A stretch of DNA of 64,000 nucleotides. It comes from Candidatus Atabeyarchaeum deiterrae (GTDB taxonomy: Archaea; Asgardarchaeota; Atabeyarchaeia; Atabeyarchaeales; Atabeyarchaeaceae). Location: the NCBI GenBank assembly GCA_037310415.1, contig CP147780.1, forward strand, positions 384,001 through 448,000. Reading direction: 5' to 3'. Under the pieces are notes generated by a model, which had not been told where the DNA came from, did not search any database, and was given only the letters and a program-made list of their open reading frames with translations. Position 1 is the first letter of the stretch, and every line of letters begins with the position of its first letter. Below, piece by piece: positions 5,508-33,551 of the stretch. Both the position numbers and the translations under genes were made by a program.

Positions 5508-6113
5508 TTGGCGAGAGGCCCAAGGTACAGAGTTCTATTCAGAAGAAGAAGAGAGGGAAAGACGGACTACTATGCCAGAATGAAACTGCTGAGGTCAAGC
5601 AAGCCGAGGCTTATAGTCAGAAAGACACTAAATAACATGATAGTCCAAGTGGCTGACGCCAAGCCTGAGGGTGACCATGTCATTGTATCAGCTTTTTCCC
5701 AAGAGCTGCGTAAGCAGGGGTGGATGGGCGAGTTTGGAAACGTGCCCTCCGCGTATTTGACAGGCTATCTTGCAGGCACAAGAGCAGTCAAGAAGGGTCT
5801 GAAAGAAGCAGTTTTAGATATAGGGCTTAGCGCCCCAAGCAAAGGTTCAAGATTATTTGCTGCATTGAAAGGATTTGTTGATGCAGGAGTAACCGTAAAT
5901 CACGGCGAATCGATACTGCCTTCAAACGAAAGGATAAGAGGAGAACACATAGCCAACTATGCTAAGGCTTTGTCTGACACGAATCCAGAGTACTATCAGA
6001 AGAGGTTCTCGGAGTATCTAAAAAGAGGACTCGAGCCGCAACGGCTACCAAAACATTTTGACGATGTAAAGAAGAAAATCAGTCCACCAGGGGGTAAGCA
6101 AGCTGAGCGGTGA
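5508..6113 (+). CDS. rpl18: 50S ribosomal protein uL18
   Basis: [26 protein letters not shown]. Confidence 0.97.
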
Positions 6114-6759
6114 TCAGACAGCACAACGAGAAAGAAGAGCTGAGGAAGGATGGATTCCAAGAACAAGGATAGGCAAACTCGTCAAAGAAGGGCACATCAC
6201 GTCAATCGAGGAGATCTTTAAATCGTGCGACATAATCAGAGAAGCAGAGATGGTTGATCTTCTTGTTCCAGATCTTGAGGAAGAAGTCGTAGACATCAAT
6301 CTTGTTCAGAAACAGACAGATGCGGGAGAAAAATCCAAGTTCAAAGCGACTGTAATAGTCGGAAATGGAAACGGTCTGGTAGGGCTAGGGGAAGGAAAAG
6401 CAAAGGAAGTTGGTCCCGCAATAAAGAAAGCAGTTAAGCAGGCCAAATTGAAGATAATCCCGGTTAGAATGGGATGCGGATCCTGGGAATGCAAGTGCGG
6501 GGAGAAACACTCACTACCCTTCAGAATTGGCGGGAAATCTGGAAGTGTGAGAATTACGCTTATTCCAGCTCCCAAAGGAATAGGTCTCGCCATAGCGGAT
6601 ACACCCAAGGTTGTGCTGCGCCTCGCAGGAGTAAAGGACGTATGGTCTCTGACAAAGGGTCACACCCGCTGCACAGTCAACTTTGCAAAAGCCACATTTA
6701 ATGCATTGAGAAAAACCCACAGTATCGTCTCGCCACGCGACTGGGCAGGAGGATTGTAG
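6103..6759 (+). CDS. rps5: 30S ribosomal protein uS5 (probable CTG start)
   Basis: Conserved [11 protein letters not shown] lies upstream of the first ATG (6250) in the same frame; CTG at 6103 follows GGGGT; QKQTDAG and GCGSWEC motifs. Confidence 0.93.
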
Positions 6760-11447: not shown

Positions 11448-12490
11448 ATGAAAGAAGCTAAGCTACCATATGACATAAAGAGAAGCTTTCGAGACAAATC
11501 TCATGATGTTACAGACGACAGATTTGGCTGCAATCCATCGAAACGTCCCATAGCTGAACATATCGACAAGGGCGTAATCAACTTGGACAAGCCAGCAGGC
11601 CCGACGAGTCACGAAGTGGTCGCCTGGGTAAAGAGGATATTTGGAATCGAGAAGGCTGGTCATGGCGGGACTCTAGAACTGACCATCGTTACCTGACACA
11701 TGTATGGCGGCAGAGTAATCCCCGAGTAACTGGTCTTCTGCCTGTAATGCTGAGTAACGCAACTAAACTCGTCCAAGCAATCTTGCCCGCAGGTAAGGAA
11801 TACATATGCATTATGAGGCTGCATAGCGACGTTTCGGACCAGGAACTAAAGGAAGTCTGTGAAGAGTTTGAAGGCCCGATACACCAAAGACCGCCTTTAA
11901 GATCTTCTGTCAAGCGCATCTCTCGCATTAGAACGATTTACTATCTTCAAGTTCTCGAGAGAGACGGCAGAGACATATTAATGAGGATTGGGTGCCAAGC
12001 GGGCACATACATAAGGAAACTCTGTCACGATATCGGTGAGGCCATCGGCGGTGGTGCTCACATGAAAGAATTAAGGAGAACCAGAACGGGGTCCCTAAGA
12101 GAAGATGAGTCCATGATGATCCTCCAAGACATTGTAGATGCAGTTCACTTCTGGAAGAACGATGGAAATGAAGACCCTGTTCGGAAGGTTGTCCGGCCTA
12201 TGGAGGAGGCAATTGAACACCTCCCAAAGATCATTATTCGAGATTCGGCGGTCGACGCGATATGTCACGGAGCTCAACTTGCAGCCCCTGGCATACTCAA
12301 GACCCATACTGGCATAGCAAAGAACGCCTTAATCGGAATCTTCACATTGAAAGGAGAAATCGTTGCGTTGGGACGGGCACAGCTTGATACGGAGAACATA
12401 ATCTCAGCTGATAAGGGTATAGTCGCTGCTATCGAACGCGTGATTATGGAACCGGGGGTATACCCAAAGCACGAAAAGCAGAACAGTTAA
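11448..12490 (+). CDS. cbf5: H/ACA RNA-guided pseudouridine synthase Cbf5, split by an intron (exons 11448-11676 and 11718-12490)
   Basis: [12 protein letters not shown]; splicing restores [15 protein letters not shown]; GTYIRKLC; C-terminal PUA domain. Confidence 0.95.
11677..11717 (+). other. 41-nt BHB pre-mRNA intron in cbf5
   Basis: GGGA/UCCC outer helix, CUCU/AGAG central helix, AGA and UAA 3-nt bulges; removal restores the frame and the GAU codon. Confidence 0.9.
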
Positions 12491-12532
12491 CTGCAGAATC
12501 ATGGTTGCTCGGATGGTTGGGATTTAAATAAT

Positions 12533-13165
12533 ATGCCTGAACATTACTTTACCGCTGAACCAACATCTGAACTGAAGCTAAGATCGCTGACTTTTGCTGT
12601 ACTTGGAATAGAACTGCGATTTCTGACAGCTTCCGGAGTTTTTTCGCACAGAAGGGTTGACACAGGAACTAGAGTGCTTCTTAAGTCCATGAAGATACCC
12701 AACAGAGGGCAGATTCTAGACCTAGGCTGTGGATGGGGGGCCATTGGAGTATTCATAGCTATGACACATCCAGAAGCGCGTGTCGTAATGACCGACATAA
12801 ACAAGAGGGCAGTTCGACTTGCTGTAGAAAACGTTAAGCTCAACAAAACAAGTGCTGAAGTAAGATGTGGTGACCTCTATGAGCCAGTCAGCCGCATGAA
12901 GTTTGATGCCATCGTCTCTAATCCGCCCATATCTGCAGGGTTCAGCTTGATAATCAGGCTAATCAATGAAGCATATGACCATCTTAATCGGGGAGGCTCA
13001 ATTCAACTTGTTGCTCGCAAGAGAAAAGGCGGCAGGACTATATCGAAGATTCTGTCAAAAGCCTTTGGTAATGTCCAAGAGATCGAGAAGAAGAGCGGAT
13101 ACACTGTATATTTATCACGTAAAGAGAATGAAATCGGTTCTGAACAGCCAGACAAAAGGGTTTAA
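12533..13165 (+). CDS. Class I SAM-dependent methyltransferase (RsmC/MTS-like)
   Basis: EHYF, GVFS..RVDTGT, LDLGCGWG, NPP. Confidence 0.9.
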   Translation: MPEHYFTAEPTSELKLRSLTFAVLGIELRFLTASGVFSHRRVDTGTRVLLKSMKIPNRGQILDLGCGWGAIGVFIAMTHPEARVVMTDINKRAVRLAVENVKLNKTSAEVRCGDLYEPVSRMKFDAIVSNPPISAGFSLIIRLINEAYDHLNRGGSIQLVARKRKGGRTISKILSKAFGNVQEIEKKSGYTVYLSRKENEIGSEQPDKRV

Positions 13166-31812: not shown

Positions 31813-32223
31813 ATGCCAGGTGTGAAACTAGTCGTATCCGATCCTGATGCAAAAAGAGCATATCAAATGGAACTAAGTGAAGACAAGGCAAGAAGCATCC
31901 TAGGCCGGAAAATAGGAGAGACTGCTAACGGCGATGCCCTGGGATTGAAAGGATATGAAATACTGATCACGGGCGGAAGTGACAAAGACGGTTTCCCAAT
32001 GCGGGAAGATCTGCATGGAGAAGGAAGAAAAAAGATCCTCCTTGCAAGCAGCCCCGGCTACCACCCTAAGGAAAAGGGTGTGAGAAGAAGAAAAATGATA
32101 AGAGGTAGCACCCTCACTCGTGAAATAGTCCAAGTAAACGCGAAAGTGACGAAAAAGGGAGAAAAAACGTTAGAAGAGATAATCGGTAGCAGTGGAGTTG
32201 CGAAGAAGGAAGAGGAGAAGTAG
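31813..32223 (+). CDS. rps6e: 30S ribosomal protein eS6
   Basis: ITGGSDKDGFPM, RRRKMIRG. Confidence 0.97.
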   Translation: MPGVKLVVSDPDAKRAYQMELSEDKARSILGRKIGETANGDALGLKGYEILITGGSDKDGFPMREDLHGEGRKKILLASSPGYHPKEKGVRRRKMIRGSTLTREIVQVNAKVTKKGEKTLEEIIGSSGVAKKEEEK

Positions 32224-32273
32224 TTTCATTCAGACTTCTTGATCAGAAGGATATCTTGTTGAGGTGACCAGAG

Positions 32274-33551
32274 ATTAAGAGAAGTGCCGATAAAGAGAGT
32301 GATGAGGATATATCACGCCAGGCTGAAATCAACATAGGTACCACTGGTCATGTTGATCATGGCAAGACAACCCTTGTCAAGACTCTTTCAGGCGAGTGGA
32401 CGATACGGCATTCAGAAGAACTCAGAAGAGGTGTCACCATAAAGTTAGGATATGCCGACGCAACCATAATGAAGTGTTCTAAATGCTCAGCGCCAGATTG
32501 CTACACGACTGACGCAATCGCTGGAGGGAAATGCCCGCATTGCGGGGGAGATCTGGAAATCCTTCGCAAGGTCTCCTTTGTCGATTCCCCCGGTCATGAG
32601 ATACTGATGGCAACCATGTTGTCAGGGGCGGCAATTATAGACGGAGCGGTTCTGGTGATTGCGGCGAATGAGCAATGTCCACAGCCCCAAACCAGAGAAC
32701 ACCTCGTGGCCCTGAAAATAATCGGGATAAAGAACATCGTAGTCGTTCAGAACAAAATCGAGTTGATCCCAAAGGAGAAGGCATTGGAGAATTACAAACA
32801 GATTACCCAGTTTATCAAGGGGATCATTTCGGATAGTGTACCTATCATACCCATATCAGCCATACATGGTGCTAACATCGACTATGTTATAAAAGCCATC
32901 GAAGAGAGGATACCGACTCCAGAAAGAGACCTTAGCAGGTCTGTCCGAATGTTTGTGGCACGATCTTTCGACGTCAACAAGCCTGGAACCGAACCAAAAG
33001 ATCTGCTGGGAGGAGTAGTTGGAGGCTCCATAATTCAGGGGGTTCTGAAAGTCGACCAGGAAATCGAGATACGGCCAGGCGTAAAGGTAAGTGAAGGGGG
33101 GAAGGAGAGATATACGCCCATATTTACGAAGATCACAAGTCTCTCTGCAGGCAAACAGGTCAGAGTAACCGAAGCGACGCCAGGCGGTCTGATAGGTGTA
33201 GGAACACTCCTGGATCCATCTCTGACCAAGGCAGACGGACTTGTAGGGAACGTCCTCGGGAAGCCAGAGACATTACCGCCTATATGGGATCAGACTACAA
33301 TACACTTCTCGCTGATGGAAAGAGCAGTCGGAACCGTAGGACAAGAAATTGTAACCCCAATACGCACTAATGAGCTACTGATGCTCAATGTTGGCACCGC
33401 AACCACTGCCGGTCTAGTAACCAGTGCCAGAAGTGATGTGGCTGACATCAAGCTGAACAGGACGGTCTGCGCTGAGGAGAATTCGAGGGTCGCCATAAGC
33501 AGGAGGATTTCGGGTAGATGGAGATTGATCGGCTGGGGTAAGATCAGCTAA
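32274..33551 (+). CDS. eif2g: Translation initiation factor aIF2 gamma (probable ATT start)
   Basis: [18 protein letters not shown] lies upstream of the first ATG (32469); in-frame TGA at 32265; SD GAGGTGA 6 nt before ATT; [23 protein letters not shown]. Confidence 0.95.

Follow-up and report, generated by a model that had tools for sequence, protein, structure and literature searches.

A probable AUU start codon behind a strong Shine-Dalgarno sequence in the aIF2-gamma gene of an Asgard archaeon and its possible link to start-codon stringency

Introduction

Where does the translation of an initiation factor begin when its reading frame offers none of the usual start codons ahead of its first conserved motif? 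This question is raised by the gene of aIF2-gamma in Candidatus Atabeyarchaeum deiterrae, located near the middle of the window, i.e., the whole stretch of 64,000 nucleotides that was analysed. The initial annotation proposed that this gene initiates at an AUU codon placed behind a perfect Shine-Dalgarno (SD) sequence, and that such a start could belong to a circuit sensing the fidelity of initiation. The control of start-codon stringency through the start sites of the factor genes themselves is textbook knowledge for bacteria (infC) and for eukaryotes (eIF1, eIF5). To our knowledge, eIF2-gamma has not been reported to be under this kind of control. Our literature search on aIF2 autoregulation and on AUU starts of archaeal initiation factors found no description of either, and neither AUU starts nor the autoregulation of initiation-factor genes are mentioned in two reviews of archaeal initiation.

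Results

Identity of the gene and reality of its bases

The features of the locus are given below in the coordinates of the window; all of them are on the forward (+) strand.

31813..32223 (+): rps6e (ribosomal protein S6e), the upstream cistron, with an ATG start and a TAG stop 50 nt 5' of the ATT
32261..32267 (+): Shine-Dalgarno sequence GAGGTGA, the last three bases of which are the in-frame TGA closing the upstream frame
32268-33551 (+): open frame of aIF2-gamma, which opens directly 3' of the in-frame TGA (32265-32267)
32274..33551 (+): predicted coding sequence of aIF2-gamma, 425 codons plus the stop, single copy (PRK04000, E 3e-195; TIGR03680, E 8e-191)
32274..32276 (+): ATT, probable initiation codon, 6 nt 3' of the SD, with a homologous ATT or ATC in relatives
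32346..32372 (+): G1 (P-loop) motif GHVDHGKTT, read from the translation
32469..32471 (+): earliest in-frame ATG, which encodes an internal Met (open-frame residue 68)
32475..32543 (+): Cys4 zinc-knuckle (CxxC...CxxC), read from the translation, its Cys columns being invariant in a 16-sequence alignment (A1)

The frame scored above the curated cut-offs of two NCBIfam equivalog profiles, with 649 bits against 315 for PRK04000 and 635 bits against 514.5 for TIGR03680. Both profiles were covered from position 2-5 through their end, and the alignments set in at open-frame residues 16-17, position 5 of PRK04000 corresponding to residue 16. The G1 motif GHVDHGKT, the DxPGH motif of switch 2 and the Cys4 knuckle are all present in the translation and occupy invariant columns of alignment A1. 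No second copy was found in the 2.76-Mb single-contig genome, where the next-best matches are paralogues that are 36% and 30% identical. As the only match of full length and high score, the frame is the functional copy of aIF2-gamma and not a SelB- or EF1A-like paralogue.

The initial annotation had called for a confirmation of the ATT, which was obtained. No difference was found at positions 32261-32276 in the contigs of four sequencing runs, which belong to three studies (region compared, 32100-32600). None of the listed runs containing this stretch is recorded as RNA. The bases are unchanged in the probable source run, at a depth of 101, and identical in an independent run from freshwater sediment (2022). 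A soil run (2024) carries SNPs at 32130, 32250 and 32282 and therefore represents a different strain, yet its bases 32261-32276 are the same. This agreement of three studies, a variant strain included, stands against an assembly or sequencing error, and the intact full-length frame, its single copy and its top equivalog score stand against a decaying pseudogene. With the same arrangement present in four relatives, either explanation has a negligible probability.

The start site and its Shine-Dalgarno sequence

The coordinates and the content of the frame were as first described: the TGA and the G1 motif are separated by 26 codons, none of which is ATG, GTG, TTG or CTG, and the ATT at 32274 follows GAGGTGA by 6 nt. 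The first ATG (32469) is situated 41 codons 3' of the beginning of the P-loop motif and behind both the P-loop and switch 1, so that a start at this codon would delete the P-loop, as had been pointed out. The 3' end of the genome's own 16S rRNA reads GGAUCACCUCCU, to which GAGGTGA is complementary over 7 nt; the description of this SD as perfect was therefore justified.

In a set of 2389 ORFs classed as coding by codon usage, the distance separating the AGGAGG core and the start codon peaks at 9-13 nt for ATG genes and at 9-12 nt for TTG genes, and the ATT at 32274 lies at 9 nt. An SD of at least 7 nt at proper spacing was found in 48 ATG, 25 TTG and 7 GTG genes, i.e., approximately 80 of the 2389 ORFs (3%). 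The SD of aIF2-gamma is among the strongest of the genome, a top-3% site.

Conservation of the site in close relatives

The site was compared within a clade of five members, composed of this genome, two family-level relatives (species genomes) and two metagenome contigs of 82-83% protein identity. All five have the sequence (C/T)TGAGGTGA followed by six variable bases and then by the start codon, which is ATT in this genome and at loci L005, L006 and L053 and ATC at L052. In the spacer between S6e and aIF2-gamma, no block other than TGAGGTGA is invariant across the five members, and the residues encoded past the start are variable until a conserved QAE(I/L)NIG. No canonical start precedes the P-loop in any member of the clade, save a TTG inside the ELNIG of one relative. 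The initial annotation would have been contradicted by relatives varying freely between ATG and near-cognate codons at this place; ATT or ATC was found in five of the five members and ATG in none.

Between the lineages of the clade, four-fold degenerate sites are only 27-40% identical, hence close to saturation (the pair L052/L053 is closer), and the 40 nt 5' of the SD are 30-50% identical. Since the neutral sites are nearly saturated and the flanking spacer is scrambled, the SD, its spacing and the AU(U/C) codon appear to be held by selection. The third base of the codon taken alone gives weak statistics, the lack of a G in four saturated lineages having p ~0.3 under neutrality. We consider it probable, from the conservation of the whole site, that the AUU start is maintained by selection and not by drift.

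No conserved RNA structure was found in the spacer: the alignment of the five members gave no conserved fold (-5.4 kcal/mol), the fold of the single sequence was no more stable than those of shuffled sequences (z-score -0.07) and a search of the spacer against Rfam matched no family.

Other possible starts

The true start could be placed elsewhere, namely at ATA 32310, at AAG 32277, at a codon of the INIG segment, at a start spliced in from upstream or by reinitiation after the mini-frame TTG-AGG-TGA. The ATA named by the initial annotation as an alternative is indeed in frame, as is AAG 32277, which was omitted there although it is also one base away from ATG, and in this genome the mini-frame does stand 5' of the aIF2-gamma frame. 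These observations are outweighed by the SD, the only conserved block of the spacer, and by the lack of a conserved helix in the latter, and a start elsewhere is quite improbable.

The individual candidates were rejected as follows. The ATA (32310..32312, + strand) is replaced by TCA, GTC or GCC in three of four relatives and has a GAGG only 2 nt upstream. Reinitiation after TTG-AGG-TGA does not agree with the relatives, in which CTG, not TTG, precedes AGG-TGA. A tRNA-type intron supplying the start was discarded, the spacer being devoid of a conserved helix. A frameshift from the out-of-frame ATG at 32302 or GTG at 32264 was also discarded, both frames being stopped within 4-11 codons. Finally, a reading of TGA 32265 as selenocysteine was set aside, the upstream frame being unconserved and the TGA being part of the SD, although the genome does encode selenoproteins.

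Among the genes of the last kind, an AhpC/TSA-like ORF (G000:C1:2423047-2423385, - strand; G000 designates this genome) is preceded by an in-frame TGA, yielding a U-P-Y-C redox motif, and is a probable selenoprotein, as is an HdrA-like ORF (G000:C1:828766-829317, - strand) in which a TGA replaces the Cys of a CxCG motif. The gene of serine hydroxymethyltransferase (G000:C1:652737-653900, + strand) is interrupted at its conserved AEG-x-PGKR segment by an in-frame TGA, which could mark a pseudogene, be read through or encode Sec.

Among the codons of the aIF2-gamma frame, the candidate AUU is the sole one that is both positioned by the SD and conserved in the relatives, and very probably the AUU at 32274 is the real start of the gene.

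Near-cognate starts in the genome and the family

The significance of an AUU start depends on how common such starts are. In the whole genome TTG is an unusually common start, SDs of at least 6 nt at proper spacing being followed by 160 ATG, 101 TTG and 34 GTG. Away from canonical starts, near-cognate codons were observed 33 times behind SDs of at least 6 nt, for 18.5 expected. ACG is the most enriched of them genome-wide and a clear outlier, and the genome-wide test for an enrichment of ATT behind strong SDs was negative (4/456).

A comparison of orthologs was performed on 308 pairs between this genome and the first 400 kb of its sister genome G001, hence on a sample, a near-cognate start being called when at least 10 conserved codons were found 5' of the first canonical start. 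A canonical start was missing only in G000 for 8 pairs, only in G001 for 5 and in both for 1. Direct replacements between G000 and G001 were ATG/ACG, ATT/ATG and ACG/ATG. Near-cognate starts seem, from these alignments, to be used by roughly 2-4% of the genes of the family and to be mostly ACG. Carried by a small share of the genes, they imply that AUU is not unique to aIF2-gamma; this percentage also indicates a generally permissive machinery, so that a weak start on aIF2-gamma need not mean regulation. According to the ortholog comparison, the predicted near-cognate starts of the family are real but evolutionarily labile. The neighbours of aIF2-gamma stay canonical, and the other near-cognate-start genes of the family flip to or from ATG.

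Several genes with unusual starts were recorded on this occasion. The uS5 gene (window 6070-6759, + strand) has no ATG, GTG or TTG before the conserved archaeal N-terminal segment, its first canonical codon being codon 61; its frame opens right after an ATG-TAA and overlaps the end of uL18, and its candidate start is a CTG at 6103, approximately 8 nt past GGGGGT, for which the sister genome G001 has a TTG upstream. A TldD/PmbA protease, encoded outside of the window (G000:C1:1070833-1072215, + strand), has its first domain 5' of any canonical start, and a CTG placed 4 nt past a 10-nt perfect SD, GAGGTGATCC, is the candidate start. An FAD oxidoreductase (G000:C1:22619-24022, - strand) starts, in G000 as well as in G001, at an ACG behind GGGGGT. 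The gene at 12490-13165 of the window (+ strand) has an ATG here, the homologous codon of G001 being ACG, and a Ras-like GTPase (G000:C1:151221-151832, - strand), with a conserved N-terminal domain 5' of any canonical start, has an ACG here and an ATG in G001. A conserved N-terminal domain is likewise located 5' of any canonical start in a P-type ATPase (G000:C1:1473876-1476452, - strand), and 5' of the canonical starts in an adenine deaminase (G000:C1:517084-518883, - strand), which has an ATT behind GGAGG.

The start of aIF2-gamma in other archaea

The survey was widened to a set of 100 aIF2-gamma loci from 30 genomes of the same phylum and 80 metagenome contigs, limited to the loci found by a motif search and classed according to the codons available from the upstream stop to the NIG motif. 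An ATG is possible in 48 of the 100 loci, the choice is restricted to GTG or TTG in 35, mostly a TTG behind GGAGG, and 17 have none of the three, many of the metagenome contigs being near-duplicates. On a maximum-likelihood tree obtained by a quick search, not a full one, the 17 loci without a canonical start require five changes, at least four of which are forced by well-supported branches. They are distributed as follows.

Group 1, the present Atabeyarchaeia clade: ATT/ATC
Group 2, a single genome from a different order: GGGAGGTG-TAG-ATT
Group 3, eight GC-rich metagenome contigs forming one clade (L061-L063, L067, L074, L080, L097 and L100): ATC three bases after GATCC, with the same 9-nt core spacing
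Groups 4 and 5, two separate lineages: ATA behind GGTG or GGGTGA

Following this tree, predicted non-canonical starts of aIF2-gamma (ATT, ATC, ATA) are present in at least 4-5 independent clades. In the ATC clade, aIF2-gamma is preceded by a TATA-like box of its own and by a gene in divergent orientation, and the PIN gene that follows it starts at GTG or TTG. Given this promoter-like box and this divergent neighbour, the weak codon would not be only a device for balancing the S6e operon.

In a sample of named genomes, the search pattern GHVDHGKT, which also matches bacterial EF-Tu, gave at least 14 usable archaeal aIF2-gamma loci. Among the matches listed, a Poseidoniales MAG (L165, CAXEUS010000004.1) has an aIF2-gamma gene without a canonical start and with an apparent CTG start behind a G-rich SD, after GGGGGGAT-GAGAA; a related MAG (L167) has a TTG start instead.

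Two neighbouring genes served as controls. Among 42 complete loci, the homologous position of S6e is an ATG in 39 and a GTG or TTG in the other 3, a canonical codon being present in every case, and the downstream PIN-domain gene has an ATG in 65 of 81 loci, a GTG or TTG in 15 and none of them in a single one. In this genome the genes of aIF1, aIF1A, aIF2-alpha and aIF2-beta start at ATG, and that of aIF5B (window 29940) at TTG. With an ATG in 48 of the 100 aIF2-gamma genes, an AUH start is not required for the function of the factor.

These comparisons bear on a neutral explanation, according to which the choice of starts is relaxed and a change from ATG to ATT drifted to fixation in the ancestor of the clade and was not reverted. 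The genome-wide excess of near-cognate codons behind SDs is in agreement with such a by-product, and so are the approximately 14 of the 308 ortholog pairs in which at least one member lacks a canonical start. However, starts of this type change readily between G000 and G001; that of aIF2-gamma was kept in four saturated lineages, and its AUU is paired with a top-3% SD. AUH or CUG starts were, moreover, gained independently on aIF2-gamma elsewhere, for none of 42 on S6e and 1 of 81 on the PIN gene. Since the start is stable in all the lineages of the class that were sampled and reappears in distant archaea, drift is hard to invoke, and we regard the neutral explanation as improbable.

Discussion

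Taken together, we propose that the weak AUU is a selected throttle, which ties the output of aIF2-gamma to the start-codon stringency of the cell, and we give this reading a probability of roughly 0.55 on the basis of the sequence comparisons. The initiator Met-tRNAi would read AUU with a mismatch at the third position, at low efficiency, and the strong SD would hold the 30S subunit long enough for initiation to succeed. The initiation of aIF2-gamma would then be inefficient, and its output would follow the permissiveness of the initiation machinery toward near-cognate codons, the start acting as a throttle and potentially also as a stringency sensor.

Several published results concern the acceptance of such codons. 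The S. solfataricus 30S complex binds an AUU mRNA in the absence of aIF1 but rejects it once aIF1 is present (PMC4705826), and mutants of eIF2 permit initiation at non-AUG codons (PMC6412873). In H. volcanii, the loss of KsgA raises the proteins started at non-AUG codons as a class (PMC7897474), and approximately 30% of the novel initiation sites detected by ribosome profiling are near-cognate (PMC7261190).

A more ambitious hypothesis is a closed autoregulatory loop, in which the level or activity of aIF2 (or the aIF2:aIF1 ratio) would set the acceptance of AUU on its own gamma mRNA, giving homeostasis of the initiator-tRNA carrier much as IF3 does for infC. Whatever speaks for a selected AUH start, its convergent recurrence on aIF2-gamma included, also lends the loop indirect support, and aIF2 belongs to the machinery that checks the start codon (PMC6412873, PMC4705826). 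One conceivable route, which is speculative, is that scarce aIF2 would leave initiation to a less discriminating path assisted by aIF5B, accepting AUU more often. Against the loop, aIF2-alpha and aIF2-beta start at ATG here, so that only one subunit would be controlled; furthermore, mass action could give the opposite sign, and there is no known mechanism for a decrease in AUU initiation with rising aIF2. The closed loop is rather unlikely. A broader view, slightly more tentative still, is that in archaea, the Asgard lineages included, the genes of the factors that select the start codon were repeatedly placed under near-cognate starts, forming a homeostatic circuit that would both sense and set stringency.

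Beyond the regulatory question, the locus has a practical consequence. Gene finders that accept only ATG, GTG and TTG truncate the essential aIF2-gamma behind the P-loop or mis-call it; Prodigal was the gene caller in the paper describing these genomes (PMC11291895). Surveys in which AUH, ACG and CUG are allowed behind SDs would mend many archaeal gene models. The conserved and convergent AUU, AUC and AUA codons on the carrier of Met-tRNAi also offer a testable entry point, in-vitro systems being available for P. abyssi and S. solfataricus, and the present case is found in the lineage closest to eukaryotes.

Three known systems can be compared with this start. In E. coli, pcnB is one of the rare bacterial genes started at AUU, and its weak start limits a protein that is needed in low amounts. 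It has no link to start-codon fidelity and is the model for a plain throttle.

The bacterial gene infC, encoding IF3, combines an AUU start with translational autorepression, as mentioned in PMC4705826. The likeness is close, i.e., an initiation-factor gene with an AUU behind an SD, a codon conserved in orthologs and a product belonging to the machinery that judges such codons. It differs in that infC is bacterial and encodes an unrelated protein: IF3 is a proofreader, whereas aIF2-gamma is the GTPase carrying Met-tRNAi, its archaeal proofreading partner being aIF1. In addition, feedback has been demonstrated for infC, whereas for aIF2-gamma it would be a candidate property.

In eukaryotes, eIF1, with an AUG in poor context, and eIF5, via a uORF, autoregulate through start-codon stringency (PMC3326321; Ivanov 2010, as cited in PMC6237735). 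Here the machinery is homologous (eIF1/aIF1, eIF2/aIF2), and in both cases a fidelity factor would be made sensitive to stringency by a suboptimal start site. The eukaryotic loops operate on scanned mRNAs, by way of uORFs or of an AUG in a weak Kozak context, whereas the site of aIF2-gamma is an SD-led non-AUG codon on a polycistronic mRNA of prokaryotic type; with no AUG at the site, and neither a suboptimal AUG nor a uORF in a scanned leader, the likeness is one of logic only. If true, an archaeal circuit of this kind would be the counterpart, and perhaps the forerunner, of the eIF1 and eIF5 loops, convergent with that of the bacterial infC.
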